In this document: one piece after another, positions 29,839-64,000 of the stretch
How positions within the stretch are numbered: position 1 is the first letter of the stretch
Layout of the letters: each line of letters opens with the position of its first letter
Assembly: GCA_903860135.1 (NCBI GenBank)
Contig: CAIOPG010000004.1
Coordinates: forward strand, 185,687-249,686
DNA from: Candidatus Omnitrophota bacterium
GTDB taxonomy: Bacteria; Omnitrophota; Gorgyraeia; Zapsychrales; Fredricksoniimonadaceae
Direction: 5' to 3'
DNA length: 64,000 nt
The notes under the pieces: model-generated
What the model saw: the letters and a program-made list of their open reading frames with translations, nothing else
The model's database searches: none
Told to the model about the DNA's origin: nothing
Translations under genes and position numbers: made by a program

Positions 29839-29864
29839 ACGACATTTCCTTTTCAATTAAACCA

Positions 29865-30710: not shown

Positions 30711-30711
30711 A

Positions 30712-31635: not shown

Positions 31636-31647
31636 AGTTACCCTGGC

Positions 31648-35654: not shown

Positions 35655-35740
35655 GAAAGAAATCTCCTGATTCAATTAAGGAATGGAACCGACGAATAAT
35701 TTTAACTTGGATTAAAATAAATAACAAGCGGAAAAAGGTG

Positions 35741-36115: not shown

Positions 36116-36155
36116 GAAGCCCCCTCGTATTAACTGGACGCAATGCCCAGCACCC

Positions 36156-36509
36156 TCAAGCCGACATTTCGCGGTGCAGGAACGGCGCATCGAGCGCGCT
36201 ATCAATGTCTTTCTGGGTTCCATCAACCACATCCGCAAATACAAGCCCCACGCGGTAACGCTCGGATCCCGGAATTTTGTTCACCCATTTAACCTGACCA
36301 ATGACCAGGACGGGCTCCGCTCCGGCCTTGAGAACCAACTCAAGGGCTATTTTCTCGTTCACTGGAACATTATGCCTAGAAATAAAGCCCAAGCCATGAC
36401 GGCTGATATCAACGGTTTTAGCGGATGTGAACGGTGCCCCTTCTTTGCCATCAACAGGGACCGCGCAAGCCCAACGACTGAATTTTCTTTTATTATTGTC
36501 ATTTTGCAT
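36156..36509 (-). CDS. PilZ domain protein (c-di-GMP binding), single-domain
   Basis: RKFSRW ... DISRHGLGF (RxxxR and D.SxxG motifs). 117 aa. Confidence 0.7.
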   Translation of the reverse strand: MQNDNNKRKFSRWACAVPVDGKEGAPFTSAKTVDISRHGLGFISRHNVPVNEKIALELVLKAGAEPVLVIGQVKWVNKIPGSERYRVGLVFADVVDGTQKDIDSALDAPFLHREMSA

Positions 36510-49600: not shown

Positions 49601-52600
49601 AACGCCCCCTTGATCCAAAGCGCCCTGCTCCTAGCCGCTTCCTCACTCCTGACCGCCTGCATATAATCCCTGGCATTCTCATCAAAGCTGATCACCTTTT
49701 TTTCATACATGGCAACAAGTTGCTCTACCTGCTCAGAATCCATTCCGCCCGCTTCCAAGCGCTCGCGCACCGTATAAGCATCAAGGATCTGTTTCTCCAG
49801 ACGCTCTAGGCCTCCGTGTTCCTCAATATTATCCATCGCCTGACGGAGTTTGCTCCTATTCTCCTGGTAAGCTTCATAAGAAAGCACGCCATCCCTGTAG
49901 GCACTCTTCCAGCCAGTCTCAATGGCATTGATCTTGTCCGTCAGGGAATATTGAGACTCAACATCTTCCCTGTTATCATCGGTGATCAAGTCGTACGTTT
50001 CAAGAAAATGCATCACATCCGCTTTCTTGCCAGGAACAATCAGCCCGTTAGCCAGATCAAAGGCGATCTTGGCCTTTGCCAAGGCTACCGCTTCTTCATG
50101 CGATAACCCGCCGCGCCGCTCAAACACCTCCACAATCTCATCGAGAGGCATCTCATGGTTCAGTTTAACCGTCCCGTAATGACGTGCCCAATAATCACGC
50201 AAACGACGTACAGACGGGAACACAGAGGACGTCAATGTCGCCAGCAAAATCGCCGCCAAAATAGGCAGTGTCAAGATCAATAACCAGTGCTGATTCACAA
50301 CATCATTATAAATCGGCATATCCGCTGATGGGTTGCGTGCAACGCTCGATGTGACAGAAGGTTCTTGCTTTTCCGCAGCCTGTTGCAGCGGCGTCCAGAT
50401 TTTCTGCCTGACACTAATATATTTTCCATTGATCGACATGACGCTTTTATCATTAAGCCCCAATGACATTAACGCACGCCCCGTCAAGGAATTCGAGAAA
50501 AGATCCAGATTGCTATTCTTATAAACTTCCCCATAAAAACGCTCACCATTAAGTAAATTAATAGTCTTGTTTATTGGATCCATCGCAAATACAGCAACAA
50601 CCTTGTTGTTCACAGAAAGCCTGGACAAGATCTCCGTATTATCTTGCGTCACCGGCACCTGGCGAACTTCCCTGACGATCGTGCCATCCGCAAGCTCAAA
50701 ATACCGCGTCATAAATGTGCTGTACTGATGAATATCCAACGTCGTCCTTGATCTTTCAGGACTCTTTAAATACTCCAAGGTGTTATCAAGATTCGTTAGC
50801 GTCCCGCCAAGGTGCATGGTGTACGCCGGCTTTCCGTCATATGTAACCTGAACAAAATGCTCTTTAGGATAAAACTCTTCAATCTTCCCGGAATCAAACC
50901 AATAAAGAATCTTGATCTGCGCCTTGGCATTAAACTCATGCTCTTGACGCCATTCATACAGCACAGAATAACTGTAGCAATGCGCAAAGGCCTGTTCGAA
51001 TTCTGTCTTGCGCACCACCCTGTTAGTCTCGGGCTGAACCGCCACCTCACCGGAAGCGACCATAAATGGCAATGCCATCTTCCGGTCAAAATAACCCTTT
51101 TGCACACTTCGGTATTCCATGAAACGATAAGCATTGTTTTCGATCTTGATCACATCCACAGGCAACGGGTCATTATCTGGAATATAACGCACCAAATTAA
51201 GATCAACTTTCTTGGTTGTATCATTCAAAGAACCCAACAAAGTACGCCGTTCAATCCTGATCAAGTTCTTATATCCTAGGAAAGCAAGATCCTTCTGCCT
51301 CTCAGCAAAGCCAATGACCTTATCCAACTGTTGCTGCCTGTAAAATTCCTCAGGCGCGATCCTTCCACCCGTTTTCTCAAAGTAAACATCACCTTGATGT
51401 CCCGTCGTTTCAGCGCGTGTCATGATCCCGTAAGCCTCGCTCGCCATTTGTTTATCAAACTGCGTGTTCACCACAAAAGTCGCATCTTCAACAAGCGGCG
51501 CTGACTGAAGTGCCACAATGTGGTTCTTGGGGTCTTCCTTGAGTTTCCGGACAAGATGCGTACCATTACCGATAATTTTCAAACGAGACTCAACAATATG
51601 AACGTCCCCCGTAATGCCCTGTTGTTGCTTAAGCATGGCAATCGTTTGGTCAAACTGCTCCAGCAATGTAACTTCCCGGCCATTGATATTGCCTTTAATA
51701 TTAAAGACCTGTTGACGCGCCTGTTCCAATGTTAACGTCAGGCTGTCTTGCGCCACCTCGATAAGCCTGGCATCCACAAAACGATTGGGATCATTTCTGT
51801 CCTGCTTGAGCACATACGTATAGGTGATATCCCCGCGGGTGTATTCCATCTTCCACCCCCAGATGCCGCCAAAATCAAGCGGAAAGATCGAACCAGGGAA
51901 ACGATTCGGCTGAAGAAGCGTTCCCCGCGCAAAATGATATTTTCCATCCTTGGGGTTATACGTATAAGCAGCTTTAACGCTCGGATGCGTAAGCACAGCC
52001 TTGCGTATCACCTCAGGTGACAGTGTCAAAACCTGCCTTGTTGGCGTATAGCTGACTTCATGACTAAAGTCAATGCCACGGGCTTGGCTGAAATTATACA
52101 TACGGCTTGTCCTGTCAGGGAACAACACCTCTACCATGCCGCTAACAGGCTTGCCATCACGATAAGTATCTGGATACCAGCTAATGAGCTTTTCCCCAAG
52201 GAAACTCTTATCATAATTGCCTTTGCTTGTCGTCTCTTTATCCGTGAGTGCAATCGCCGTGGCAAATAAATTCGTGGATGCATTGCTGGGATTTAAAATA
52301 TCCGAAACTTTAAGCTCAACATTCTTAAAATGAATTTTACCTCTTTCCACAACATAATTGATCGGCGTACGGCGGCCGGCAATGTAATCATCAAAACCAT
52401 AAACCTTGAGACCCTCGACAATCTTGGATCCCTTGCGGTCATCCATCAAATAGAAAGCCCCCAAGTTACGCGTCGTACCGTCACCAACTAAGCCAAGTTT
52501 GTCACCCTTTTCCACGTGCAGAACATCCACAAGGTCATGCCAATAAGCCTGCACCTGATTCAAAGTTACAAATACCTTATCCTTCCACTGCGCCTTCGCG

Positions 52601-55600
52601 CTGTCCTGCCGCGGGAACTCGACAAGATACGCACTATTCATCAAAGCACTTCCCTCTTCGGGGTCATTAAGTTCACAACGAATGATCGGTTGGCCGACAT
52701 CCATCCTGACAAGCCGCTGCGCCAGGCTCATATACTCAATCGTATTCCCGCCCAATGGATCCATATGGTCGATCGACAGCACATACTCCGCATATTTTGG
52801 AACTTCCTTAAGGACCTGTTCTTTACTGCTGAAGATCTTCGATGCTTTATCCTTGAGGACGACCACATAACTGCTCTCGTTATACGGGCGCTTCTTCAGC
52901 TGGGCGATTGACTCTTCGAGCGCCCCCTTCATGGGCTCAAGGATGATCGGATACGCACTGGTGATCGTCTTGCCGCCCAGCGTATACGTCCCTGCCGGCA
53001 GGACCATTGCATCACCGGCGCCCATAGGTAGCAGAATGCCGTTAACCTTAAGCGCAAACCGCTTCGTCTCCCTGTCATAGATAACCCCCATGCGCGCCAA
53101 CGCCTGATCCGTTCCCTTCCAATACTTGAGCGGTATCGCAAGTTTAAGATCCTTCCTGGTCAAATAGGCATATTCTTCCTTAGATACAGCCACAGGCAAT
53201 ATCCCCTGAACAATCGCCCGGCCCTGACCGTCATACATCGCCTTAAGCGTTTCAAGCACATCCGGCGAAAGATGAACCACCTGGCCATCACGCGTCATGA
53301 GGATGCTTGTCTGACCTTCCGATGAAACGTCACCGGTTACCGTGATCTCACGATTAATGGGCTGAGGGTCGACACTGTTATACGGCACCACCATATCCAG
53401 GTTTTGGATCGTCGTAGCATCGCGTGGCGTGCCTGCCGGGAGCTTTAGATCCTTATTTTTGTTCTTAACAACATCCAACGTAACCCCGCGCGTCAAGCTG
53501 AAGCCTGGGACCAGGCTCTGTCCTGGAGTAATACCCAAATTTGTCCCAATGCCAATATCAACGCCGCCACTAGCCTTCCAACCAGCGAACGTTTGCAATC
53601 CGCCCACCTTGGCCGAAAGACCAGCGCCGTAATTACCGTCGGAATAGAAACCATTCAAATGTCCCACTGTCCCGTTAATGCCAAGCCTGCCGTCATGGCT
53701 GTAAACAAGACTCGCCGAACTTTCCGCGCCCATCAGCGTGCCATTCAACGCCAGGCCGGCGAATGACGTCACACCAGCATTCTGCCGGCGCTCAACGCCC
53801 ACAGAAACCTTCAAGCCCTTGACGATCTCATACTGGTAAACAGCGCGTGCAAACTGCTCCGCCTGTGCCGCGCTCAGATTAATCTTTTCCGAAGGAACAA
53901 CATTCCCCTGGGCATCACGCAGCCGATCGTGGGTGAAGGCATCCCAATACGTGAACTCAGCGGTTGTATTGGCTGTCCCTTGGGTACGGCCTACTTCCAC
54001 CGTGATCTTGCCGCCATTCAAGATGGCATTACTGACCGCCGCCTGCACATTCGTCCCATAGGTGCGGGCATTGTTCTGATCCGCCCAGGCAACAAAACTA
54101 TCCCAGCCAAGATAAACAGATACCTTGTTAGAGCCGTTATCCGCCACATCGCGCTTAAAGGCAACGGCATAATCCAGGACGGTGGTGTTGGTATTCACCG
54201 TCGTATGACCAGCGTCACTCGTTGGATCATGGGCATCGAGAATAAGATAATTGGATTGTCGATACTGCGTAAGATTAAACGACGAGTTAAAGATCGTCGT
54301 CGGATTATACGTCAGCCAATTTACAGTGGCTGCTGTCAGGGACACAGGCGCAGCCGTCGCATCATAAGGCTGACGGCTTCCGGCACCGAGCGTCCACGTT
54401 GCACCATTAAAAAGCGGCCGCGTGGTGGAGCCAAAAGATACCGCCGTCCCATTATGGATATTGTTGGTAGAACTGCCCATCGCAGAAACTTCCGGCGTCA
54501 GGACAACAACCACGCCCGCCTCGTCCACAACATAAGCAGCCGCCTTGATGCGCGCCGCAAATTCCCCCTTCACCAGGCTGATGGCACTGGCTTCCGCCGC
54601 CGGCGCCAGATGAAGGCCCTTGATAACCTGCAGGGCCTTTTCAAGTTCTTCCTTGATCCGCTGGCTATAGACGGCTGCTTCTGCCGTGTACCGGGCAGAT
54701 ACCTCCAGGCGCTGCTTTTCAGCCGCCGCCATCTGCGCCTCAATTGCCTGAGCCGGAGCATAAGCATCCATAACCTGTTGCCGCGCATTATTCCGGGAGC
54801 CCAGCGCATCGTTGACAGCCCTCGAAGCCCCGGCACCGTTAGCCACCGCATTCCTGAGGTTATTCATCACCTCATCGGCAAATTCCTTGTTTTTCTTCAT
54901 TTTAGCCGCAACGTCCGGCGTAAAAATCGAAAGGTCATCAAATCCCGTCCGTAATTTCTGACTCAACCGCAAATTCTCGGCCCACAATGTCGACATGGTT
55001 TCATTGAAGCTCAGCGCATCCTGCGCCAACAACATAATGGGCCTGTCAAAATCCAGTTCACTGCCATGCGCGATGGCCACACGATCCATGGTCTCAACAT
55101 TATTGATCAGTGCTTGAACCGTAGCCGTAGCCTCCGGCGTCAAATTCTTGCCCTTCTGCAAATATGCCACTTCACTCATGATCTCCGTATGCCGTGCGCC
55201 CGTATAATACGGAATATATTCGGCAGGATCCTGCAACGGAATGTTCTTGAAATCCTGAACCGATACTATGATCGAGCTATCAAACAAAGTCTTGGTTTCA
55301 TTCAGGATCGCAATGTTTTCTGTCTCAATGGCGGTCTTCTCCGAAACAACCGCATCAAGATTAACAGGGCTGTAACCAAAATACTGCGTCGTCGGAGCGT
55401 TTCTATATAAAGCCTTGCTATTCTCAAGTACCGCGATATCTGCCTGCAGATTAGCGATTTTTTGATTAAAAACATTCGTCAAAGAAACAGGATTGTAGTT
55501 GAAATACTGTGTCGTCGGAGCACTCCGGTATACGTCCTTGCTTTGATTTAACGCCGCAATCCTGTCATTTATAATAGCGATCTTTTGGTCGACAACAGCA

Positions 55601-58600
55601 TATGGATCAAACCCGCCTGATTGCAAATCCACGGCATCCTGATTAACACGCGCCAGATCTGCAACGGCCACTAGCCGTTTTGCTGCCGTTTCATCTACAG
55701 CCTTTTGGAGAAACCCTGCCCACACCGTATCCCCTGCGGCTGTCGCCTTGTTCAGCTCGGCATTCCAATACGCAAGTCCGTTCTCAAGGGACTGGATATA
55801 ACCACCTGTTCCATTGGAACCCAAATAATAATTACGCGCCGCCTCTATCTGCGTTGGCGAGAATAAGACAGTAGAGAAATGCTGGCTTTCCATAAGATTA
55901 AGATTGTCGATATACCCCTGATTCGTGGAAATTTCGGCATCAATCAAGCTAACCTGCGATTGAATATAAGCCGCCGCATCATTATCCACAGACGGATCAT
56001 ACCTGGTCATATCTGTCCTGTCCTGCATAACGCGGACAAGATTCGCTCTGGCAGCCGTTAATGTGATCTCCGTGTTAGCAAGACAGCTTTCAAGAAACTG
56101 TACCCGCGCAGTGTCCCCTGCGGCATTCGCCTTGTCCCGTTCGGTATTCCAATACGTACGCCCATCTTCAAGAGACTTGATATAACCACCCGTTCCGTCA
56201 GCACCAACGTAATAATCATGCGCTGCGGTTATCTCTGCCTGCGATAAGAATACCGTCGAATAATCATTCTCCCTCGCCTTCGTCTGCAGACTGGCAAGAT
56301 TGTTCTGCGCTTTAAGAATATCGGCATCGATCTTATCGATCTGCCCCTGAAGGAAATTCGCCGCATCCGGATTAACAGCAGGGTCACTCAAAACCATATC
56401 CTTTGCATCCTGTACCACACGACCCCAAGCGCGCTCAATATTTATCTGTTTCCTCTGAGCAAGGCTCAATGCCTTCTCAAGAATCCCGATCAATGTGGGG
56501 TTCCCCTCGGCTTTAGCTAATTGCTGCCTCCAGAAAACAACAGAATTCTTCGCTTCCTCGATAGCCCCCACATTCCCATCCTTACCAAGGTAATAACCCC
56601 TCGCCTTTTCCATATCCGCTGGCGAAGAATATACCGTGTCATAATTGTGAGTATTCTGCAGGCTGAGCGCGGCAATATTTTGCTGGCTTTCAAGAATCGC
56701 CGGCGCGATCGGATCAATATAAGTCGACTGAATATACGCCACCGCCTGCTCATTGGTGGTAACAGTCTCTGGCGTAAAATAAAGCCGTCCCCACAAAAGC
56801 GGCGTTATTTCAGCATACCGGCGCATGACCGTTGCGCCGTCTGCAAATGATTTCACCTGTTTCGCTGCCCAGTCAAGGGCTTTGTCGTCGAACACCCCAG
56901 GGATCGTATTATAAAGCGGCGCGGTCTCCATCCGCGACAACCCGATCGATGAATGCAGGTACTGCAACTGATCGATCCTGGCCTGATTAACCGGCAGGTC
57001 CGCATCAAACGATAATCCGGCACCAGTCTTTTCTGCCTTGCGCACCGCCGACTGCGCCTGCCCTGCCAGCGCATACTGCTGAAGGTTCGAGCTCTCGATC
57101 TGCCGACCCAATTCCGTCAGCGTCCCATAGCCCTTTCCAAAACGCTTGAAATCCACGCCGCTCAAGGCCTGCTCCACCGCCGCATCCACCCGCAAACGAT
57201 TGCTCTCATAATCCGTCGGTATTGTTACTAACATCGGTACTTCAGGCACGGCCGTCAAATTACCCAAAGAATCTTCCGTTACACCTTTTGCATCCGGGTT
57301 CTCCTTAAATTTCTTCACGAGTTTCTTGTCATTGGAGCTGTACTCCATAAGCCCAACTTCACCGGGCTTTATACCCGGTCCATCCGTAACGATATTGCCT
57401 TGGGTGATATATTCCTCCGGATTGAGCCCACGGCTTCCCAAATACGTCTGGAACTTCAATTTATTATCCTCGCTCAGCGGCTCCACTTGGTATTGCTTCA
57501 TATCTGCCTGCGTGTACAAATATATAATCCTATCCGCAAGAATAATGCGTGCCAGCGACAATCCCGGCAAGGCCTTCGACAGATCAATATAAACCTCGAT
57601 CGTATCCTTGGTCTGACGCCCCGGCAGGCTCACGCCAGCGGGCAACAGCTCATACGCTGAACCACTCGTCAAATAGATCGGCGACGGAACCTTGTCCCCA
57701 AACGTCTTGCCCTTGTCAACATGCTGCGGCTCGACCTTAAAGGTGCCGACCGCATCAGGAGCCGTACCCGGACGTCTTTCCACCAATTCATAAACACTTT
57801 CCGGATGCTCCAGCGTCGGCTGCTGTTTCAACCTGAATACGAACGTCACGCCCGTGTGTACATCCCGGTCAAACGTGCCGCCCAAGGCAAAAGCCAGCGA
57901 CGACAATGTTTCTTTGGCGCTGGACAAAACAACGGCAAATACCGGCTTCGCTGGAACAAGAACATCCTTATCATCACGATGCTCCGGCCACATCAACGGC
58001 TTGCCTTCAGGCGTCAAGATCGGCCTGTCAAGATCCACCAACGCAGGCACCCACTGATATCTTCCGTCACGGAATGTTGGAACAGCCTGTATATCAAACC
58101 GGTGCTTTGTGTCATCTTTCAGATAAGAATCACCAAACTTCACGCCCGCAGACGGATTCACAGCAATACCCCTGTTCTCCCGGCCATTTTCCACACCCGC
58201 CTGCAAGCTCCTGGCCATAGCCGCATTCTGTTCCCTCTGCCTGCGGCTGATGATCGGTGCCACCTCCCCTTCATGCTGGAACAAACCAACACTCTTGAGC
58301 CATGCCGCTTTGAAATCCTCCAGCGGCGCATACAAGCCATCTGTCGTGCTGCCTTCAAAACGGAACACCTGGAACATCTCTGTCACACCCTCTTTACCCT
58401 GTGTGCTATACAGCTTGTTCCGGTCGATCTTGTAATAAATGAGGAACTGATCGCCCGGCAAAGTCTTGCTTTTCTTCGTCACGGACGTACCCTGGACAGG
58501 ACGGGATCTGACCCATGTGATGTTCTCATCGGTCTCATTATCCGCCGTTGTGTTGATCAGTTTTTCCATATCTCCCACAACAGCCGCCCATACATGACGC

Positions 58601-61600
58601 TTCAACACAAACGGTTCGTTGGTTCCAAACACATCCTTGACATACGGAATATTACCAAGGATTGACTTCAATAAACTTGTCGGAACTTTAATGATCGTCA
58701 GGCCTGTGGGCACTACGCGCTTACGATCACCCGTGTTAATAACATTGCCGTCAATAATATAACTGAACCCGTTATCCGTACGGCTGACAACATAACTTTC
58801 TTCGGCATCAGGGCCTCTAAAACTACCCGCAAAATTAATCGCCTGATCAATAACCCCGCCCACAGCCCAAACCCTGTTAAGCGTGGTCGTGAAAGGATCA
58901 CTCTTGCGTGTAGCCGCAGCAATAAGATTCGACAGGGACGTACTCCCCGGCACGGTTGGCCCGACACTCAAAAGAGACCCGAGACTATACGCGCCGCTGG
59001 GCATCTGATTATCAAGAATTACCCGCGCGTCTAATATCGACTGATCATCGCTCGCCCCGTTCTGCCTGGCAACGTTCAAGGCTTCCTTCTGCAGGGCTGC
59101 TGGCGTAAGATACTGCCCTAGCCATAGATTCTTCACAACACCAACAGCAGCTTCTCCGGCTTGTCTCGTCAAGGAAGAATTCTCCGGGGCATTGCCCCTC
59201 AACCGCGCAATTGTTTCCTCCAACCGTTCCTTTTCTCTCTTCTGTTTCGCCAATTCCTTCGCCGGATTATTGCTGAGATCATTCCCCCTATACCAATTCT
59301 CCACCGCTGTCAAAACTGTTCCCGGCAAACCCTGTGTCTTGTTCAGGCGGATCCTGGCAATGCTCACGGGCTTGCCATTCTGGCGGATCTCAACCGTATA
59401 CCCGTCCTTGGCCGTGGCCGAAGCAAATACCTCACCCGCCGTCGCCGCCTTGACCATATTAATATCCGTCAAGCCCTTGTAAACAACCGTAACATGACCC
59501 GAAGCGATCTCCACAACGCCCTTGCCCATCATCCGCGGCGTACCCGTCAGAATGGAGCGCACATGCGCCACTGAAGCCCTGCGCTCCTGCTGTCTAACCC
59601 CACGTTCGAACGTTACCCCCTTGATATGTGTCACCGAAGAACCTACAAGCTGTATGGACTCGGCCACCGGATCAATCTTGCCCTTGGGCAATGCGTACTG
59701 CGTCACCGGTGTCGGCAGCGCTTCAGACGCTGGCTTAAAGCCCTTGCGCAAGGAGTCTGGCATAACAGCCGCTTTAGACGAATCCAGCCCACCAGCCGTA
59801 GTGTCGAGCACGATCGGTGTGCTCGATGCCTGAACCTTAACAACCGGCTCTTTCTGCTGCGCAGAACAGCCCGCCAGCGCCAGCATCGCCACCAGCGATA
59901 AAAACCGCACGCTGCCGCTCATCCATCCATTCTTCTTGCCCCTCAACAGCGCTGGCACAAAGGCGCCGAGCATGAGGAGCGTCGCTAAACCATTGCCAGC
60001 CATACCAGCCAGTGTGAAATCGTTTGTGGAGGCCGGATTAAGAACAGGAACGGAGGGATGTCCTGTTAATCCAACCTCCACGCCCGCGACAGATTTGATT
60101 GCCGCAGGTTGTTGGGTGACGGACCCGAAATGGGTTGTTTGTATCAAATGATGTGTGAGAGCCGGGCCAAGAACAGTGGCGGAGGGATGCCCTGTTGACC
60201 CGACTCCCACGCCTGTGACAGACATATCTGCCTCAGGTATTTGGGCGACGAACCCGAAATTTATTGTGTTAAATGTTTGATGGTGTGTGATGAATTGATG
60301 ATGAGGATACGCATAAGCGCGCGCGGGAACTACTGTCTCAGCAACAAAAGCTGTTTCATCAGAAACAGTTTTACCGGCTCTCCAGGTTTCCCCTTCAGCC
60401 GTCAAATCATTCCTTACTGTGAATCTTTGCTCAACAAAATGAATCACTGGCTGTTCCGCGTCCTGTTGACGCCCAACAGCCACAAATTCTCTTGCTGATA
60501 AAGCTATAAGACCATAATTATTACGCGCATCCCGATTATCGTCAAACCGTGATTCACTAAACGTTGACGAAACCCTGGAAGCCGTAACAACTGACCATAT
60601 CAAAGAATAACTTCCTGTCGTATATACCACTTCTTCAGGGGCAGATACTTCAGGTATATTCCTTGTTAAGCTACCAACAGTTCCTTCTATCTTGTTCGCA
60701 GTAGAATTACCGAAACCTCGACCATTTGTCCTGCTAGAAGGATAAACACCCGTATACGTCTTAATTACGGTTGTTGCTTTTTCTGACGCACCCTTAATCC
60801 CAAGAACAACCAGCTCTTGCTGACGGGCATTCGTCACGATCCATTCAGGTTTAGTCAACCCATAATTCGGCTGATACACCTGATGAACCACCAATTCCAT
60901 ATCCTGCGTGTTAACAGGTAACCCTGAAACAGGTGCAGGTACGTTCTTGCTTTCTTCAGCCAACCAGCTTGCGCCAGTCGGGATATTTTCGTTCTTTCCG
61001 CTATAGTTCAACGCAGAAACAGAGCAATTGTTCGTTTCTACAGTAAGTGCTGCCTTTGAAACATTGCTGCTAACAACGTCACTACGATTTCCCTGAGCGC
61101 GATTGTAAGCCTTTGAACCGTCAGCCAGGAAATTAGCCGGTTCAACGCTTGTGCTGTTAATGCCATATTTAACCGATGCCCCTAACGCACGCTGGACATT
61201 CACGTTTGCTGCATTGTACAACATGTTCATGCTACGTAAACCATCTACAGTAAGCGCTACATCATTTGTCCAATCAGTCTTTGCGATCTTCTGTCCAGAG
61301 ATTGAACCTTCTGAAACAGAGCCGTTGTTAATGCCATCGATCTTAACCTGTATCCGGCTATTCTTTACGACCGTTACCACGTGAGTCGGACGAACCGTGG
61401 CAGTGCCGTTATGGCTGTTTAACCCTTCACCACTCTGTCCATCGTTTGCGACATCTTGCGCGGGCAGAGCTAGCGCATAGAAGCCGTTTTTCTCGTTACC
61501 TACGACCTCATCGACCTGTACCCCTAACGCATTCCGGGCACCCTCGTTCGTTACAAGAACAGTATTCGTTGCATTTCCTGCATTCCCTTGTCCTAACCAC

Positions 61601-63909
61601 TCTGCCCTGTATCCCGGGAAGGATACGGCAGAGGCATAACGGCCGCCATCGCCAAAGATTGAAGCTAATAATTCATCACTCATACCTTTCAAGCGTTCAC
61701 CAAACGCTACGACATCAGCCATTGTAATGGGACCGCTCACCCATGATAAAGAATGATCCGAACCAACAGGAGCCCCGCCACCGCCCCCCATATGTATGGC
61801 TGTAGGCGCCGGAGGAACGCCACCACCATTGCCGGGCAAAGCACTCCCTGGTGTGCCTGGACGTTCGGCATTTGATTGAACGGGTATTGCCTTCTCTCTT
61901 TCAGGGATTAATTTGAATTTATTTACAGGCATCTTTTGTTCGGCTGAATGACCTATGACCTGTGCAGGTATGGCCTTGTTATTAATCGGACGCGGATCCG
62001 TACTATCTGAAATTCTCAGGGCTGTCGCCAGACCCAATGTTTCCAGAATAACCGTACCCACAAGTATTTGGTGCAAATTATTGCTGACTTGCCGCCAGGT
62101 TCTTGTGATCAACGGACGCAATCCACGGGTCATTTCACGGTATCTAGCCAGAACTTCTGCCGCCTGCCTGGATTGCTCATCTGAAGATTCAGCCCAGTTG
62201 GCTTGATCTTGCACGAAACTCAAAACAATACTAGCGACATTGATAGCTTCCGTCTTCAAGCCACCATTGTTGATCGTCTCACGCAAGGTCATTAGAATAC
62301 GATTATCGGCATCAGCGACTTCGTCCCTGTTCTGTTCATACCAAACAAGGAAGGCGGCGGCTGTCTGGACAATCTGCGTTTCGTTCAACCCTTCAGCACG
62401 TGCAATAGTTACCGTAAATTTATCAACGTCGGTTGGTTGTTTAATTTTGGTGAGATCAATCCCAATGTTCAAGGTTACATGCTGTTTACCTGCCAGCAAT
62501 GTTTCAGTATGGACATTAATGCCATTTTCAGAAACGGTTACATTTTTATATTTACCTGTTTTCTTATCTTGGACAAAAGCGACACGCACATCCGAAGAAT
62601 TACCCTTAAAGATCAAAAGAGCAGAACCATATTTATTGTTGGTCATATGAACAACCTGATCGCCAGATTGAATGTCCAATTCAGGAATAGTTTCCTTAAC
62701 CCTCAAATGGACATTAAACCCGTTATTCCCATCAGGAAGACGCTCTTGAACAGTTTCTATTGCTTTGCCGTCTGCCAAAGTAAAGGCTTCACCGGCGGGC
62801 AAGGTTGCTTGCTGGAGTCGATCCTGTTCTTCGTTATATAAAGTAACTGTGTCACGTACCTCATTGCTAGAAATACTTCTGTTCGAACCGCACACAACCG
62901 TGATTGCTTCTGTGGCAACAACGTTCATATCCGAAGGCACGGCGCCATTTTTGAACTGATCGGCCATTTTTCTTAATGATGGATTCTCGCTATTTCGAAG
63001 AGCTTCTGCCAAACCAGGCTGATTGTCAATGACGCTGACAAGAAGCGCAGCAAAATGTGCGCGCTTCTGTGCTGTTAAATATGCTGGCAAACCAGTCAGT
63101 ATGACATCGGTGGCCTGTTCAACAATATAATGGCCCCCTTTATAATTAACCTTATATCCGACAACCAGTTGAACGGGTTCTGTCCCTGCCTGCAATACAG
63201 CCAGCGGTGCGTAAATAATACCGTCTTTGACAACCACTGATTGCCTTTCAGGATTTTGTTGATCCTGATAGAACGCCGCGCGCAACTCATCGGGATCCTC
63301 TTTCTTAAAGACAAGGATAATGTCAAAAGTCTTGGAACCATTTTTGTCCAAAAGAGCATCTTTGGTATTTCCAACGATGACGGTTTTTTCACCATAGAGC
63401 TTATGGCTAACGGGTTGAAGCATGATGCGGTCGCCCTGCTCAATACCCAGCGCCGGGATAGTCTGATCAGCCGTGAACTCTTCATATTTCTTGCCATGGG
63501 TATCTGTTTGAATAGTACGCGTGTATGGGATATTGATGCCATCGACTTGCAGGGCATCCGGATCTTGCCTAACACCCTCAAGATCGATGCGCTCAGCTTT
63601 GCCGTTCTTAAAGGCGATATACGCCACCGGGTGCTGCTCATTGAACGGAACATTGCGTCCTTTTTCATCCGTCTGTTGCGTCGTAGATTTCTTATAGACC
63701 GTCTGCGTCTGCCGATCAAGCACTTCTCCCGGCTGTAACACGACGGATCCCTGACCAAACACGGACAGCAACTTGCTATCTCCCTGCTCCAAATAACGCG
63801 CTTGTTCCTGCAAGCGGGATATGACCGCGCCCAGGCTTTGTTGGATGATCTCCACATTATTAGTCACATGAACAGCCTGAACAACGCGCAACGCTGTCAA
63901 CTCATCCAT
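37636..63909 (-). CDS. Giant multi-domain membrane protein, at least 8757 aa, 5' end probably outside the window; no family assignable
   Basis: Single uninterrupted 26,274-nt ORF. The frame stays open upstream of the ATG at 63909 to position 64000 (translates ...RQIHIWRKREQLLIADQPTGRAIIAHAAEE-MDEL). Contains repeats, an internal lipobox, OMP-like beta-rich region, more than 20 predicted TM helices and pentapeptide repeats (itemised as sub-features). Confidence 0.8.
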   Translation of the reverse strand: MDELTALRVVQAVHVTNNVEIIQQSLGAVISRLQEQARYLEQGDSKLLSVFGQGSVVLQPGEVLDRQTQTVYKKSTTQQTDEKGRNVPFNEQHPVAYIAFKNGKAERIDLEGVRQDPDALQVDGINIPYTRTIQTDTHGKKYEEFTADQTIPALGIEQGDRIMLQPVSHKLYGEKTVIVGNTKDALLDKNGSKTFDIILVFKKEDPDELRAAFYQDQQNPERQSVVVKDGIIYAPLAVLQAGTEPVQLVVGYKVNYKGGHYIVEQATDVILTGLPAYLTAQKRAHFAALLVSVIDNQPGLAEALRNSENPSLRKMADQFKNGAVPSDMNVVATEAITVVCGSNRSISSNEVRDTVTLYNEEQDRLQQATLPAGEAFTLADGKAIETVQERLPDGNNGFNVHLRVKETIPELDIQSGDQVVHMTNNKYGSALLIFKGNSSDVRVAFVQDKKTGKYKNVTVSENGINVHTETLLAGKQHVTLNIGIDLTKIKQPTDVDKFTVTIARAEGLNETQIVQTAAAFLVWYEQNRDEVADADNRILMTLRETINNGGLKTEAINVASIVLSFVQDQANWAESSDEQSRQAAEVLARYREMTRGLRPLITRTWRQVSNNLHQILVGTVILETLGLATALRISDSTDPRPINNKAIPAQVIGHSAEQKMPVNKFKLIPEREKAIPVQSNAERPGTPGSALPGNGGGVPPAPTAIHMGGGGGAPVGSDHSLSWVSGPITMADVVAFGERLKGMSDELLASIFGDGGRYASAVSFPGYRAEWLGQGNAGNATNTVLVTNEGARNALGVQVDEVVGNEKNGFYALALPAQDVANDGQSGEGLNSHNGTATVRPTHVVTVVKNSRIQVKIDGINNGSVSEGSISGQKIAKTDWTNDVALTVDGLRSMNMLYNAANVNVQRALGASVKYGINSTSVEPANFLADGSKAYNRAQGNRSDVVSSNVSKAALTVETNNCSVSALNYSGKNENIPTGASWLAEESKNVPAPVSGLPVNTQDMELVVHQVYQPNYGLTKPEWIVTNARQQELVVLGIKGASEKATTVIKTYTGVYPSSRTNGRGFGNSTANKIEGTVGSLTRNIPEVSAPEEVVYTTGSYSLIWSVVTASRVSSTFSESRFDDNRDARNNYGLIALSAREFVAVGRQQDAEQPVIHFVEQRFTVRNDLTAEGETWRAGKTVSDETAFVAETVVPARAYAYPHHQFITHHQTFNTINFGFVAQIPEADMSVTGVGVGSTGHPSATVLGPALTHHLIQTTHFGSVTQQPAAIKSVAGVEVGLTGHPSVPVLNPASTNDFTLAGMAGNGLATLLMLGAFVPALLRGKKNGWMSGSVRFLSLVAMLALAGCSAQQKEPVVKVQASSTPIVLDTTAGGLDSSKAAVMPDSLRKGFKPASEALPTPVTQYALPKGKIDPVAESIQLVGSSVTHIKGVTFERGVRQQERRASVAHVRSILTGTPRMMGKGVVEIASGHVTVVYKGLTDINMVKAATAGEVFASATAKDGYTVEIRQNGKPVSIARIRLNKTQGLPGTVLTAVENWYRGNDLSNNPAKELAKQKREKERLEETIARLRGNAPENSSLTRQAGEAAVGVVKNLWLGQYLTPAALQKEALNVARQNGASDDQSILDARVILDNQMPSGAYSLGSLLSVGPTVPGSTSLSNLIAAATRKSDPFTTTLNRVWAVGGVIDQAINFAGSFRGPDAEESYVVSRTDNGFSYIIDGNVINTGDRKRVVPTGLTIIKVPTSLLKSILGNIPYVKDVFGTNEPFVLKRHVWAAVVGDMEKLINTTADNETDENITWVRSRPVQGTSVTKKSKTLPGDQFLIYYKIDRNKLYSTQGKEGVTEMFQVFRFEGSTTDGLYAPLEDFKAAWLKSVGLFQHEGEVAPIISRRQREQNAAMARSLQAGVENGRENRGIAVNPSAGVKFGDSYLKDDTKHRFDIQAVPTFRDGRYQWVPALVDLDRPILTPEGKPLMWPEHRDDKDVLVPAKPVFAVVLSSAKETLSSLAFALGGTFDRDVHTGVTFVFRLKQQPTLEHPESVYELVERRPGTAPDAVGTFKVEPQHVDKGKTFGDKVPSPIYLTSGSAYELLPAGVSLPGRQTKDTIEVYIDLSKALPGLSLARIILADRIIYLYTQADMKQYQVEPLSEDNKLKFQTYLGSRGLNPEEYITQGNIVTDGPGIKPGEVGLMEYSSNDKKLVKKFKENPDAKGVTEDSLGNLTAVPEVPMLVTIPTDYESNRLRVDAAVEQALSGVDFKRFGKGYGTLTELGRQIESSNLQQYALAGQAQSAVRKAEKTGAGLSFDADLPVNQARIDQLQYLHSSIGLSRMETAPLYNTIPGVFDDKALDWAAKQVKSFADGATVMRRYAEITPLLWGRLYFTPETVTTNEQAVAYIQSTYIDPIAPAILESQQNIAALSLQNTHNYDTVYSSPADMEKARGYYLGKDGNVGAIEEAKNSVVFWRQQLAKAEGNPTLIGILEKALSLAQRKQINIERAWGRVVQDAKDMVLSDPAVNPDAANFLQGQIDKIDADILKAQNNLASLQTKARENDYSTVFLSQAEITAAHDYYVGADGTGGYIKSLEDGRTYWNTERDKANAAGDTARVQFLESCLANTEITLTAARANLVRVMQDRTDMTRYDPSVDNDAAAYIQSQVSLIDAEISTNQGYIDNLNLMESQHFSTVLFSPTQIEAARNYYLGSNGTGGYIQSLENGLAYWNAELNKATAAGDTVWAGFLQKAVDETAAKRLVAVADLARVNQDAVDLQSGGFDPYAVVDQKIAIINDRIAALNQSKDVYRSAPTTQYFNYNPVSLTNVFNQKIANLQADIAVLENSKALYRNAPTTQYFGYSPVNLDAVVSEKTAIETENIAILNETKTLFDSSIIVSVQDFKNIPLQDPAEYIPYYTGARHTEIMSEVAYLQKGKNLTPEATATVQALINNVETMDRVAIAHGSELDFDRPIMLLAQDALSFNETMSTLWAENLRLSQKLRTGFDDLSIFTPDVAAKMKKNKEFADEVMNNLRNAVANGAGASRAVNDALGSRNNARQQVMDAYAPAQAIEAQMAAAEKQRLEVSARYTAEAAVYSQRIKEELEKALQVIKGLHLAPAAEASAISLVKGEFAARIKAAAYVVDEAGVVVVLTPEVSAMGSSTNNIHNGTAVSFGSTTRPLFNGATWTLGAGSRQPYDATAAPVSLTAATVNWLTYNPTTIFNSSFNLTQYRQSNYLILDAHDPTSDAGHTTVNTNTTVLDYAVAFKRDVADNGSNKVSVYLGWDSFVAWADQNNARTYGTNVQAAVSNAILNGGKITVEVGRTQGTANTTAEFTYWDAFTHDRLRDAQGNVVPSEKINLSAAQAEQFARAVYQYEIVKGLKVSVGVERRQNAGVTSFAGLALNGTLMGAESSASLVYSHDGRLGINGTVGHLNGFYSDGNYGAGLSAKVGGLQTFAGWKASGGVDIGIGTNLGITPGQSLVPGFSLTRGVTLDVVKNKNKDLKLPAGTPRDATTIQNLDMVVPYNSVDPQPINREITVTGDVSSEGQTSILMTRDGQVVHLSPDVLETLKAMYDGQGRAIVQGILPVAVSKEEYAYLTRKDLKLAIPLKYWKGTDQALARMGVIYDRETKRFALKVNGILLPMGAGDAMVLPAGTYTLGGKTITSAYPIILEPMKGALEESIAQLKKRPYNESSYVVVLKDKASKIFSSKEQVLKEVPKYAEYVLSIDHMDPLGGNTIEYMSLAQRLVRMDVGQPIIRCELNDPEEGSALMNSAYLVEFPRQDSAKAQWKDKVFVTLNQVQAYWHDLVDVLHVEKGDKLGLVGDGTTRNLGAFYLMDDRKGSKIVEGLKVYGFDDYIAGRRTPINYVVERGKIHFKNVELKVSDILNPSNASTNLFATAIALTDKETTSKGNYDKSFLGEKLISWYPDTYRDGKPVSGMVEVLFPDRTSRMYNFSQARGIDFSHEVSYTPTRQVLTLSPEVIRKAVLTHPSVKAAYTYNPKDGKYHFARGTLLQPNRFPGSIFPLDFGGIWGWKMEYTRGDITYTYVLKQDRNDPNRFVDARLIEVAQDSLTLTLEQARQQVFNIKGNINGREVTLLEQFDQTIAMLKQQQGITGDVHIVESRLKIIGNGTHLVRKLKEDPKNHIVALQSAPLVEDATFVVNTQFDKQMASEAYGIMTRAETTGHQGDVYFEKTGGRIAPEEFYRQQQLDKVIGFAERQKDLAFLGYKNLIRIERRTLLGSLNDTTKKVDLNLVRYIPDNDPLPVDVIKIENNAYRFMEYRSVQKGYFDRKMALPFMVASGEVAVQPETNRVVRKTEFEQAFAHCYSYSVLYEWRQEHEFNAKAQIKILYWFDSGKIEEFYPKEHFVQVTYDGKPAYTMHLGGTLTNLDNTLEYLKSPERSRTTLDIHQYSTFMTRYFELADGTIVREVRQVPVTQDNTEILSRLSVNNKVVAVFAMDPINKTINLLNGERFYGEVYKNSNLDLFSNSLTGRALMSLGLNDKSVMSINGKYISVRQKIWTPLQQAAEKQEPSVTSSVARNPSADMPIYNDVVNQHWLLILTLPILAAILLATLTSSVFPSVRRLRDYWARHYGTVKLNHEMPLDEIVEVFERRGGLSHEEAVALAKAKIAFDLANGLIVPGKKADVMHFLETYDLITDDNREDVESQYSLTDKINAIETGWKSAYRDGVLSYEAYQENRSKLRQAMDNIEEHGGLERLEKQILDAYTVRERLEAGGMDSEQVEQLVAMYEKKVISFDENARDYMQAVRSEEAARSRALWIKGAFDKVRRVIKANTTIKARLEGRPLVSLMVRLASILDKVEKAWHLESLLQDPLTTGDLLTMIRVRAAKGVRHAVGIMDLLERVLPLDDAGKRAWLKAALVEVEKRRNKNLQVTIAEALDAAFERALEPVLRAFLAKHNLDVLVAEAARMPGSAVTEPFTHRLSFDAVLLKLAKKQIDAYAATKKVSNNTIKQIMDAKKTQFDEAGIPIPGFRELFKAAEAERQRQMASNERAVFEPIYANLIYLVSTTLKFKNQLARIYSITEVKHKSDITRKYTQEKSLEVISIQELYKVIEVRAGNEGAKDHSIFYRLRTPEAREAVHLLEHHYAGFEEALAQHAEALSLNKALYSFNDVVKMFIREKVLRNRIDEFIVYHGLSFATETHKEDYYRQMLAEFEFQVAQRPSRMPLTYAQMNFIGNPTTVFKASEPVTFEAYLFFKYMQSPRNETEHLSFGGDGFIFQEVLFLTHWFMDKRRNAYPDANLNPQAMKEYHDFIRQNVRFWRYLFYMNNLKHVTNEMQGIYNWVADSDKHGIKKQGNITLTHGFYDEKILYFFQNLSKRLIRTNISREASLEAYNMDVFEEFEAMLAQVAETSAEREAMVLEGCELLKARQGTFKQAGFEAAAGARGAIIYDAMTKIKVNGKAPIRRVANDEAKFELSWDVINKNANVFGLTVEEVEGLAAFYEKTVKAKYAEEDMEKDNSRRDDEDRGVLARLQQSIKVVLAKKDTDTADYGVFARLQQRINAVSANKGKNTAANLYMETLLPCFKPFLIAYWHMLELDSPIAFRKEIEVEKKKGMFHLYKRIYGLFGGLLGKFKRSATGRKHQTTFQDTLGVHSPVKRAVLAALMLTGLAGSFWLLSVTGSVGLLVFGLFWSISTSAVLFSYMPVKGEKTFWVFVSTTYSLVEGILAWLLFGKWYTAMMLAGTFGMFNTAALWAIITIVMLKPVIVVYRVIKSNYQTRSEIWNPVVRSRHNLFFSLFRPYWDRDNRKYFGRVNRVYQRVENVYGYILPNWVTFAEHIDGLGIELYRSGRINARERQLLRRAVYLGTDFPRLEGEQAREYLYMNMNSPAYRRVEVDTYAKHKQMVTNVQTYIEQVSHTPEAFLGKGTMSLVIDAPQERALAKMIKMHYARKGMGAMERLNMVGKVLTLIKNGSAELYSDFTRTGVKRILTENKIDEDLVKKIDAELAKIEILQGSITASMFGYLARTHGVEYANMLAKLRLQGFAALADDLALADEHFDFMGVLKKAYATSPEAVLAAVNLMGPMMDEIDPANRAVMASFAKAVITVHLLAGMSNADTDYRHAVMLADQEFDSLQEAYERWVAASKVGALTGTQEQIHLKELFITDTQFPHYKEITKSKIMQMLMMTTMWQNADPARSNIRLLNDERARALAEEKGFADATHKWAFMPVAEKIRAGQKAGASAVNRAFAAYVAQKFPNYDQHLFFMDGIERFVFADKMEFAALVLGFRATHYDLFLEGGVIKEYNAMIEWAHVFESAHASNAHVPIYEGDEIISTLKNGGIALNIWLHNNVCAYQDTQVRVMPGSNPYRLNAAEFMGRHPEAVVINPAFLIWGSSGFAYPGRRVYKLMQQVFSQVAQMGFKGMALFYGKAMINPAAGANLLMTPVEDSGAYLIQKEINPEVYATTQLAWVWEWLRPCLHAESVFWTEVRYVFNVSYMLLSSMMYKVFTNKHIGADFKLSVLENFFHYLVVAFGFILSLAIPTMMAWSGMAYLMPIWGWLLASIILMNAVNLFNLLRHIYRYGSFWYGFYLFVQDVYRAFPYCVSMLWSFVEGALMVSHFKFSFIPTSRTALFALFDTFTRFSKGLLKFGAHTEKRLKKSLTALATVLLVAGFVGFFLPASILAVGHTWMPWFALAAAGILFAMAGVLHTMTRVHLVGIPMVGIMGTVIILAGVVPFLFSTAIGAVSIVPYILLGIALLTGTSVFGTFVDVKISWGAALGSLVRYFLEVSAVETGKTIDPKTIVALNKFDRFVKYGYGRYQLSGWRLAEMFGDRWAIRTFAGLVITFLVFGIFLSGTALAMPIWLNWIFVLGIAGTGYFGFRSVREMIGMTRTVLAAQIKGVFKERKILRRGNKNDKNNKGDQSNNKDKGSQHGKNNSIFSKTLNIARQAVGTVVKYVRSRESHPKTAPPSSTAMPGLALPLFLMMIPSTWSLSALMSPPVLAFVGGVLVLVAVGAVIAWLWHAGPDVKASRMADASPPVGVLRVSNFFRKVTSVVLPVIVVASLLFPGSVTAKPAVISSDVNKIVVSTPKDERLMDSAVELWFAAQPAVMDALQVSAPADKTRVDMVGQERRHQERWVSSQNPVVEDHRGLEIVGGVAVLLVLIAAGRAVKKFAARFFILLGLGMLLTAAPVQAEARAVQLPAVASPVVIGENPGQGINGAPADALRYREDEGDRKFQEETNEEVARYEFRQKISFILEYESEILYFAIVILIAYMLGIKGKGEGRGALWIKTVATTTFMCFFIASFENMMCTVCCIVIAHFGIEKITNRNNRKKNTTAAMILAMLLAGGSAEAAERVQAAVKVDMVIPVAQGHNRALDMISGLLVVMGSVIGRKNQSRQTFYVNRNGRVAVPSFLLRKAQSEQRRDRNKKKMAVPVVVAESPTAMAKAIRQVKLWLAIAGLSVMTGIGYQVRVIQEGAMPATMPRAVLQQTPAPVAYAPADATRVVVPLPKVHAPFVYDAPGQGKQGAPADKTRVMLPMPRTKAGVVYDNPGQGKFGTPATATATAIQARSFGVSPMVNQEGLLVGGLIAGLSLLVGALGLKKFAAKSSILLVLGMLSTAAPVQAEARAVQPTAMASSWDVDDRSRQEETDEAVARLEYELEILDLALDLALDFAIVILIAYMLGIKGKGEGRGALWIKTVATTTFMCFFIASFENMMWTVCCIVIAHFGIEKITNRNNRKKNTTAAMILGMLLAGGSAEAAERVQAAVKVDMAIPAVTAVPVAAPVAVVTPEMVGQGKQGAPADATRVTLPVPRTKAGVVYDNPGQGKFGTPADATATAIQARSFGVSPMVNQDGLLVGGLIAGLSLLVGALGLKKFAAKSSVLLILGILLTAVPVMAAVPAAAVGATASISAAALVAGGVALLIAGVVIGKSAKPVTAEEEIQRAREHNIKLGEQLAKGLFERVSGAAHKVALNCMDLLRARGVDLHAFTTLIYPAAGNSDPLNAVLLAQHFPNLTTFHFISTGYEFVQNMEDLRQQCLTKLRSIDAQRTFSVELTSEDYYSWSQQWRHTRRGISSSVIMIDKGPGDNAKMRGEQPFYRSMLADTQKGDIVLMVPYGKHDYKWSGCVGTGLYFPNIHGWGEFKNWVAGLRTSVDSRKVVALASALPLPLRLNVMRNPMAYGLKRDVSSSMTATRQLPVHAWPLLFLISSGSLGSLVATIGVSAWPWLAVGVVLIALGVIWVQAVRVGPEDQEVWMTKNTLSSRQRLIRPRLAPLLFTLEDIPFSWFDMPGGAAAVKAMLGQVRAWLARVRAGGGRMPGLLGRLFLKTVAYQESAPAETNIPGLFEADGFYRLLRDHILPLLAQKQAADPAQPLRWLSAGGVSVTHWGAPAHIKLIKMAARPPRPQPLACHALPLFFLMLPGMTGVPAAVILASSLALVAVGIAAVNAATTLRRAHQEAAAVHEKNKELKDDVPMVETRWGITEPVCPFAESYFRQAWDKHDWELVRMPFDRINFYLASHAEEAIPLATYGSDFSRDVCVLKKSVERLSGRRTAVILDAPILYDVIQGKRRLEGLIVRYGSPKAGKIDMYLYRPFRGGQLLSVIKNEVGISFLNNSSVKERLENIVNMPKDNKPLLRINERALVGNKLISLLKGMDYSIISCDLPVLNDVDLSGAKFYRTNLMDARLVDVSLQRANFKEASLRFIRMNRVSAIGADFSRIFMPQANVVDSDFSGINAFKGNFSHGIFENVNFSGADLRGADFSSAQLSRCDFTGAQLEGADFTHALIEDSQYTPFTGMMRLMLPAGRP
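37639..38090 (-). other. C-terminal pentapeptide-repeat domain of giant protein
   Basis: Clean 5-residue periodicity: ADFSR IFMPQ ANVVD SDFSG INAFK GNFSH GIFEN VNFSG ADLRG ADFSS AQLSR CDFTG AQLEG ADFTH. Confidence 0.7.
40420..42650 (-). repeat. Intragenic tandem duplication (two units of ~1260 and ~820 bp plus a diverged partial copy), each with a ~250-bp AT-rich core
   Basis: Near-identical DNA at 42060-42310 vs 40860-41110 (AT-rich cores encoding FAIVILIAYMLGIKGKGEGRGALWIKTVATTTFMCFFIASFENMM.TVCCIVIAHFGIEKITNRNNRKK). Near-identical DNA also at 41241-41470 vs 40423-40650 (GQGKQGAPAD...LLVGGLIAGLSLLVGALGLKKFAAKSS). Confidence 0.75.
41047..41076. repeat. 12-bp microsatellite (atccaaagcaag x2.5) inside the second AT-rich core
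   Basis: Encodes LDLALDLALD. Absent from the first copy (42060-42310), so copy number differs between the duplicated units. Confidence 0.6.
42900..44800 (-). other. Polytopic membrane domain II of giant protein (about 15 TM helices) with K/N-rich low-complexity linker
   Basis: Consecutive hydrophobic helices, e.g. LVVAFGFILSLAIPTMMAWSGMAYLMPIWGWLLASIILMNAV and ILAGVVPFLFSTAIGAVSIVPYILLGIALLTG. Linker RRGNKNDKNNKGDQSNNKDKGSQHGKNNS at about 43250-43350. Confidence 0.6.
46700..47140 (-). other. Polytopic membrane domain I of giant protein (4-5 TM helices)
   Basis: LAALMLTGLAGSFWLLSVTGSVGLLVFGLFWSISTSAVLF ... TAMMLAGTFGMFNTAALWAIITIVMLKPVIVVY. Confidence 0.55.
53450..54130 (-). other. OMP-like beta-barrel-type segment of giant protein
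   Basis: Alternating hydrophobic/polar, G/Y/W/F-rich strands: SVYLGWDSFVAWADQ..., LKVSVGVERRQNAGVTSFAGLALNGTLMGAESSASLVYSHDGRLGINGTVGHLNGFYSDGNYGAGLSAKVGGLQTFAGWKASGGVDIGIGTNLGI. Resembles autotransporter/porin beta-domains. Fold not verified. Confidence 0.4.
55690..56640 (-). repeat. Three tandem ~381-bp (127-aa) repeats inside giant gene, followed by two ~45-aa repeats (55330-55570)
   Basis: Units ARGYYLGKDGNVGAIEEAK.., AHDYYVGADGTGGYIKSLEDGRTYWN.., ARNYYLGSNGTGGYIQSLENGLAYWN.. start at about 56605, 56225 and 55842. Then YRSAPTTQYFNYNPVSL.. and YRNAPTTQYFGYSPVNL... Confidence 0.7.
59860..59990 (-). other. Internal TM hairpin with lipoprotein-type signal (lipobox LAGC) at about residue 1330 of giant protein
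   Basis: LATLLMLGAFVPALLRGKKNGW-MSGSVRFLSLVAMLALAGCSAQQKEP. In-frame ATG at about 59922 preceded by a positively charged n-region. Confidence 0.5.
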
Positions 63910-64000
63910 TTCCTCGGCGGCATGGGCAATGATCGCCCGCCCTGTTGGTTGATCTGCTATTAATAACTGTTCTCTTTCTCCAAATGTGAATTTGTCTTCG

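Follow-up and report, generated by a model that had tools for sequence, protein, structure and literature searches.

An internal lipobox-bearing membrane hairpin as a probable export signal in a giant Omnitrophota protein

The window analysed here comprises 64,000 nucleotides (nt) of contig CAIOPG010000004.1 from a Candidatus Omnitrophota bacterium (assembly GCA_903860135.1, positions 185,687 to 249,686), and its minus strand carries a giant open reading frame (ORF; 37636..63909, frame open to 63999) of 8,757 codons counted from the first in-window ATG. Deep inside the encoded protein lies a motif built like a lipoprotein signal peptide and ending in a lipobox. This motif is probably the second helix of a conserved two-helix hairpin that serves as an internal export signal, in-chain, in a giant multi-pass envelope protein. 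We infer the hairpin topology and the export function from sequence features, from conservation in the homologue P0001, from a hairpin in the homologue P0003, and from charge asymmetry. In the proposed mechanism, helix 1 (amino acids (aa) 1300–1322) would act as a stop-transfer sequence, halting translocation of the preceding exported segment, and the following loop (aa 1323–1335), rich in lysine and arginine (K/R), would remain cytoplasmic. The lipoprotein-signal-like helix (aa 1336–1348) would then re-engage the Sec machinery, N-terminus in and C-terminus out, and the ensuing ~3,190 residues would be exported, up to a further stop-transfer helix at aa 4542–4566.

Helix 1 (59944..60012, minus strand) is a hydrophobic stretch of 23 residues, LAGMAGNGLATLLMLGAFVPALL. 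It is followed on the same strand by the basic loop (59905..59943; RGKKNGWMSGSVR), which corresponds to the n-region of a signal peptide and contains M1330 (ATG at 59920–59922), and by helix 2 (59866..59904; FLSLVAMLALAGC), which consists of an apolar h-region of 12 residues and then the lipobox L-A-G-C (aa 1345–1348), with the codon of Cys1348 at 59866–59868. The linker after the cysteine (59698..59865, minus strand, aa 1349–1404) is rich in Ser, Thr, Pro, Ala, Gln, and Lys, and looks like the tether of a lipoprotein. Read from M1330, the sequence conforms to a rule of the PROSITE PS51257 type, with R1335 within the first 7 residues, no charge at positions -10 to -5 and Cys at position 19, and the L-A-G-C site is the sole match to the PS51257 core among the 8,757 residues. 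The first-pass annotation had described an n-region, h-region, and lipobox directly after a hydrophobic helix; M1330, R1335, the 12-residue apolar run, L-A-G-C, and helix 1 with its K/R loop all bear this out. It had also placed the element about 1,330 residues into the ORF, which is correct when counted from the first in-window ATG but is only a lower bound, since the frame is open and a further homologue (P0002) is longer upstream.

The frame is in fact stop-free for 30 further codons (63910–63999; EDKFTFGEREQLLIADQPTGRAIIAHAAEE before the first ATG), giving at least 8,787 open codons, and the lipobox lies at least 1,360 codons inside it, not at the N-terminal position of lipoprotein signals. 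Since the frame is still open at the edge of the window and P0002 extends upstream by over 2,000 aa more, the real N-terminus of the protein is beyond that edge; all residue numbers are lower bounds, and the giant gene probably exceeds 8,757 codons by a wide margin. A Kyte-Doolittle scan of the protein gave 54 overlapping windows, corresponding to ~30 hydrophobic segments. Apart from pentapeptide repeats at the extreme C-terminus (37684–37947, minus strand, aa 8655–8742; Pfam E 2.8e-18), a Pfam scan of the in-window protein detected no domain.

Three relatives emerged when 1.84 billion representative proteins were scanned exhaustively with HMMER, aa 900–2099 serving as the query. P0001 (MEI8011446.1, 4,584 aa) spans the whole contig JBAXBM010000034.1 of an Omnitrophota metagenome-assembled genome (MAG), P0002 (MEI8011921.1, 3,164 aa) spans another whole contig of the same MAG, and P0003 (NLE64408.1, 5,596 aa) comes from a MAG labelled Elusimicrobia. 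P0001 was 41% identical to the window protein over aa 1143–2099 and ~35% identical over 3,939 aligned columns, and P0002 aligned to aa 46–1073 with 37% identity; a single giant gene was probably split between P0001 and P0002. No match was returned by a word-indexed protein search with aa 1100–2100 and then with a two-sequence alignment, not even P0001, and its index seems to be without these proteins. Among the species-representative genomes of GTDB, the single-protein query found nothing and the alignment query found the P0001 contig only. Neither the JGI metagenome contigs, searched with different patterns, nor the IMG/VR viral contigs, phage records, and plasmid records contained relatives. 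The giant-protein family is extremely rare in public data.

From helix 1 to the cysteine, the window protein and P0001 aligned without a gap (FTLAGMAGNGLATLLMLGAFVPALLRGKKNGWMSGSVRFLSLVAMLALAGC, followed by SAQQKE, vs. FALASMAGNGVSAFIMFGLLLTALVKGKRSSWMSYGFQLLSLVGLLSLAAC, followed by KNDAEE, in P0001). Invariant between the two are MAGNG in helix 1, GK, WMS, LSLV, and L-A-x-C, the lipobox of P0001 being L-A-A-C. Identity to P0001 was 65% in the repeat before the hairpin, 48% in helix 1, 38% in the loop, and 62% in the signal helix with its lipobox; it was 14% over the 56 residues after the cysteine, where P0001 has insertions, and 50% in the next domain. The repeat (60013..60258, minus strand, aa 1218–1299) adjoins helix 1 and consists of two tandem copies of a ~37-aa motif, FG.V.Q.P.A..SV.GV.VG.TGHPS..VL.PA.T, in which conservation is higher than anywhere else in the protein. 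Over the 3,939 aligned columns the window protein has 7 cysteines and P0001 has 8, and the only one common to both is that of the lipobox; since no other cysteine is conserved, a conserved intramolecular disulfide is excluded for it within the aligned region. In P0003, too, a hairpin stands at the corresponding place, 360 aa before a block of shared homology; in P0001 this distance is 363 aa, and in the window protein it is 381 aa. The loop of the P0003 hairpin, KKMASFRSSRGTRPSRFGGRM, resembles the n-region of a complete signal peptide, and its second helix ends not in a lipobox but in an A-x-A motif of the signal peptidase I (SPase I) type, GAGASVAEA/AVP (V-A-E-A/A).

The segment that precedes the hairpin looks like a variable 'head' in this family. 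P0001 has a Peptidase_M23 domain there (aa 161–250, E 2e-22) and P0003 a NAGPA (phosphodiester-glycosidase) domain (aa 55–217, E 7e-15), and the window protein has no recognisable domain. Beyond the tether, the first conserved domain (59275..59697, minus strand, aa 1405–1545) contains GYTVEIRQNGKPV and is the one that is 50% identical to P0001. The P0001 copy of this domain gave a sub-threshold Peptidase_M23 match (E 8.6e-4, 19.9 bits vs. a cut-off of 28.7) and the window copy gave none; sequence and profile searches of the PDB with the domain returned nothing meaningful, and an AlphaFold model of the region downstream of the hairpin, built from a two-sequence alignment, had a predicted local distance difference test (pLDDT) value of 33. 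An NlpD-like lipoprotein with a LytM domain was considered for this region and dropped, as an hhalign comparison with the genuine M23 domain of P0001 gave a probability of 0.3%.

Charge counts around the hydrophobic segments suggest the orientation. The hairpin loop has a K/R count of +4 in the window protein, +3 in P0001, and at least +5 in P0003, and the 15 residues before helix 1 contain no K/R in the window protein or in P0001. The next membrane helix (50212..50286, minus strand, aa 4542–4566, followed by VRRLRDYWARH) closes the segment of ~3,190 aa, with no K/R before it and +4 after it; the P0001 equivalent, 3,083 aa past the lipobox cysteine of that protein, has none before and +5 after. 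Because these counts follow the positive-inside rule, the hairpin loop would be cytoplasmic and aa 1349–4541 would lie outside the cytoplasm. Peptidase_M23 and NAGPA both belong to extracytoplasmic types of domain, and their occurrence in the homologues suggests that the stretch leading up to the hairpin is probably exported as well. The candidate for a first membrane crossing is aa 615–631 (62017..62067, minus strand; ILVGTVILETLGLATAL), which is moderately hydrophobic, with one Glu and three K/R on its N-terminal flank, and which in P0002 has a conserved equivalent in position that carries Asp. Judged from these features, this segment may be the first crossing, in which case export would concern only ~aa 632–1299 of the N-terminal 1,300 aa. 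The suggestion in the first-pass annotation of a membrane hairpin exposing both flanks on the same side thus agrees with the charges of the loop and its flanks, with those around aa 4542–4566, and with the M23 and NAGPA domains, except that probably not all of the N-terminal 1,300 aa are outside.

Several observations weigh against this interpretation. The giant protein has 26 cysteines and 236 lipobox-compatible contexts; when the 26 cysteines were permuted, a core match arose with P ~0.5 and the full pattern of Met, K/R, and lipobox with P ~0.14, and shuffling of 15-residue blocks gave P 0.16 for the full pattern. By itself, the lipobox pattern is not beyond chance in a protein so large and so rich in membrane helices. 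Only one homologue, P0001, covers the lipobox motif, and P0003 has no cysteine at its hairpin, so that the lipobox is not universal in the wider family. The hairpin also sits in the best-conserved stretch of the protein (52–53% identity per 100-residue window), which makes the conservation of the cysteine weaker evidence than it appears. Lastly, the presumed route of the segment upstream of helix 1 to the periplasm is weakened by the Glu in the candidate first helix, noted above, and by a true N-terminus outside the window. The lipobox match is credible because it is conserved in a homologue, not because of the pattern itself.

Whether the lipobox is used has to be weighed against an ordinary membrane hairpin, in which helix 2 would be neither lipidated nor cleaved, L-A-G-C would be coincidental and its match in P0001 would reflect shared ancestry. 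We give this explanation a substantial chance, though one short of even. It accords with the chance expectation of 0.14–0.16 for the full pattern somewhere in the protein, with the high conservation of the surrounding stretch, in which retention of any one residue is unsurprising, with P0003, in which the equivalent position has no cysteine, and with the stretch from W to C in P0001, whose 20 uncharged residues are enough for a normal membrane helix. In each of the two proteins, however, the strictly apolar run, flanked by R or Q at one end and at the other by C and then polar residues, has only 12 residues, which is the length of a signal peptide and not that of a membrane-spanning helix. The lipobox cysteine, moreover, is the sole conserved one in 3,939 columns, the variable tether begins exactly at it, with identity falling to 14% as in lipoprotein tethers, and P0003 has another type of signal-peptidase motif (A-x-A) at the equivalent position. 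The same observations favour use of the lipobox, by which Lgt would lipidate Cys1348 and LspA would cut between G1347 and C1348, leaving an upstream piece anchored by the hairpin and a downstream piece anchored by its lipid. We regard this predicted processing as plausible, though with less than an even chance. The orientation proposed above would place Cys1348 at the periplasmic face, presented to Lgt and LspA as in an ordinary prolipoprotein. In Escherichia coli, SPase I cuts cleavage cassettes that have been engineered into a chain behind an internal signal helix, so a free N-terminus is not obviously required.

Two other explanations concern the frame itself. The junction resembles the end of one gene (membrane anchor and basic tail) and the start of another (Met and signal peptide), as would be expected had a mis-assembly joined two genes or a sequencing error deleted a stop codon between them, and another assembly of the same population seems, from its contig coordinates, to break ~2.9 kb before the stop codon, in the repeated C-terminal part. 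A different organism, however, assembled independently, has the same junction in frame and without indels (L004, 13.7 kb with zero in-frame stops), P0003 has a junction equivalent in position, and a run of 26 kb without a stop codon at ~50% GC does not arise by accident. As the independent assemblies are collinear across the hairpin, a chimeric join and the loss of a stop codon are both ruled out, and we consider an artefact hardly credible. The remaining explanation is translation initiation at M1330, which would yield a separate lipoprotein of ~7,400 aa with an ordinary N-terminal signal, beside or instead of the full-length chain. An in-frame ATG does stand exactly where the n-region would begin, its Met is conserved in P0001, P0003 also has Met at the start of the loop and at the start of the second helix, the PS51257-type rule holds in full from M1330, and a purine-rich stretch, GAGGGGCAAGAAG, lies 10–22 nt upstream of the ATG. 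That stretch, though, follows from the codons for Lys, Arg, and Gly, and its spacing is poor for a Shine-Dalgarno sequence; the best Shine-Dalgarno-like score at M1330, 4/6, was matched or exceeded at 75 of 228 in-frame ATGs. The mRNA structure at -30..+20 was average in both genomes (66–70% of in-frame windows were less structured or equal), and one promoter-like site ~600 nt upstream is at chance level. A charged n-region together with a Cys 15–35 residues from the start is found from M1330 in the window protein (R1335; Cys at position 19) and not from the conserved Met in P0001. Most telling is that the P0001 peptide that starts at the conserved Met, MSYGFQLLSLVGLLSLAAC, contains no K/R, all basic residues being upstream of it, so that the basic n-region exists only if the motif is read in-chain. 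A lipidated shorter isoform from an internal start, as the first-pass annotation had proposed in the alternative, is therefore improbable.

The hairpin is laid out as if a membrane anchor with its basic tail, from the C-terminus of one protein, had been set directly before a complete signal peptide from the N-terminus of another, and it likely originated from the fusion of two adjacent genes, with both sorting signals retained. Helix 1 with its basic tail was also compared with known C-terminal sorting signals (PEP-CTERM, LPXTG, GlyGly-CTERM, and similar) and this assignment was rejected, as no NCBIfam model matched; the helix-1 regions of the window protein, P0001, and P0003 gave no NCBIfam match at E ≤ 10.

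Hairpins of a related kind recur further along the chain. Between 40366 and 42558 (minus strand, aa 7118–7848) there are five more, each with a membrane helix, a K/R loop, and a short apolar run ending in A-x-A; examples are KKFAARFFILLGLGMLLTAAPVQAEA and NRNNRKKNTTAAMILAMLLAGGSAEAA, and they resemble internal signal peptides of the SPase I type. In the same part of the protein (40786–42870, aa 7014–7708), a module of ~290 aa is duplicated (aa 7014–7300 vs. 7440–7708, 50–88% identity), with a partial third copy further on. The stretch SPMVNQEGLLVGGLIAGLSLLVGALGLKKFAAK (41245–41370, aa 7514–7555) gave a sub-threshold PVV-CTERM match (NF051874, E 0.0034, 17.1 bits vs. a cut-off of 27); were this match real, it would be a C-terminal-type sorting signal in-chain, directly before a signal-peptide-like helix. 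Three tandem repeats of ~125 aa (55555–56793, aa 2373–2785), with 31–36% mutual identity, lie within the proposed exported region, and P0001 aligns poorly over much of aa 2550–2950. A more speculative extension, which we hold to be less likely than not, is that the giant ORF encodes a polyprotein: LspA would cut at G1347/C1348 after lipidation by Lgt, SPase I would perhaps cut at the five A-x-A hairpins, and several membrane- or lipid-anchored products would result.

The remaining gene content of the window is that of an ordinary bacterial chromosome, with genes for MutS, MutL, MnmE, MnmG, PurH, a secretin, a sugar ABC transporter, GH94-like and GH2-like proteins, and PilZ; the secretin gene indicates an outer membrane. 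The MnmG protein was found on metagenome and MAG contigs only. Rfam and tRNA scans of the window gave no matches. Directly downstream of the giant gene (26542–36244, minus strand) are the PilZ, GH94-like, sugar ABC transporter, GH2-like, and TPR genes. The solute-binding protein of this transporter (31648–32943, minus strand) starts with MKLFLALLCGLMLAATACGCGQS and has an N-terminal lipoprotein signal, MKLFLALLCGLMLAATAC; from this normal signal, the lipoprotein pathway appears to be in use by the organism. An ORF of 152 codons without a Pfam match (37175–37633, minus strand) begins 2 nt past the stop codon of the giant ORF, and it is overlapped by an ORF on the opposite strand (36939–37679, plus) with a sub-threshold CvpA (Colicin_V) match (27.0 bits vs. 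a cut-off of 29.3).

Giant proteins with numerous membrane helices have been described in Omnitrophota, where it is an open question whether they exist as a single chain or are cut, and no cleavage points are known; most of them contain a divergent SecA DEAD-like domain (West-Roberts et al., 2023, 10.1101/2023.11.21.568195). A 2026 survey suppressed internal signal-peptide calls as chunking artefacts (10.64898/2026.06.07.730766). The main texts of these two papers make no mention of lipoproteins, and a conserved internal lipobox is described in neither. The protein studied here is like these giants in its very long single ORF, its many membrane helices, and its near lack of recognisable domains, in the cell-wall and glycan-hydrolase domains of its relatives, in the adjoining glycoside-hydrolase genes, a neighbourhood that has been noted in the Omnitrophota literature, and in that P0001 and P0002 both come from one Omnitrophota MAG. 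It is unlike them in that Pfam detected no SecA_DEAD, C39, S8, or dockerin in the in-window part. In P0002, aa ~1150–1500 show by eye a P-loop (GGNNSGKT) and a DEVD motif, with a faint Pfam DEAD match (E 0.12); by eye, this region may resemble the SecA DEAD motor of the Omnitrophota giant proteins, and the equivalent in the window genome may lie beyond the window. The remark of the first-pass annotation that such an arrangement is unusual for a single polypeptide holds for the conserved internal lipobox but not for a giant protein with many helices, for which both papers provide precedents.

Compared with prolipoprotein signals (substrates of Lgt, LspA, and Lnt, such as Lpp and NlpD), the motif has the same 12-residue h-region, L-A-[GA]-C, and flexible tether, together with a basic n-region when read in-chain, but it stands at least 1,360 codons into the frame, directly after a membrane helix, and its processing is a prediction. 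The element thus behaves like an internal signal (start-transfer) sequence within a known kind of protein, and it falls outside the classical lipoprotein signals by its location. In CyoA and QoxA (subunit II of quinol oxidases), a lipid-modified cysteine is followed by membrane helices further downstream, which shows that lipidation is compatible with a multi-pass topology; these proteins differ in being small and in having the lipoprotein signal at the N-terminus. When the literature was searched for lipoboxes occurring naturally inside proteins, or for bacterial polyproteins processed by signal peptidases, viral polyproteins were the only examples found. The polyproteins of flaviviruses and pestiviruses and the glycoprotein precursor of bunyaviruses have, as outlined in reviews (e.g., PMC7926653), a similar order of stop-transfer helix, short cytoplasmic loop, and internal signal helix with a cleavage motif, and after the cut the internal signal stays as the membrane anchor of the upstream product. 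Unlike the hairpin here, they depend on the eukaryotic signal peptidase of the endoplasmic reticulum and an A-x-A type motif, with no lipidation described, and their cleavage is experimentally established.

A conserved internal lipobox in the correct proposed orientation provides a precise hypothesis for one cleavage point in a giant protein. If the processing is true, ordinary Lgt and LspA would act on internal signals in nature, and bacteria could use polyproteins processed by signal peptidases. Were the polyprotein interpretation also true, the giant ORF would be a bacterial counterpart of viral signal-peptidase polyprotein processing and would offer the first defined cleavage points in giant proteins of the Omnitrophota type. 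If there is no processing, the hairpin would still provide a fixed point for modelling the topology of a protein with 8.8 thousand residues or more, and it may illustrate how giant genes could grow, by fusion of neighbouring genes whose sorting signals are kept as hairpins.

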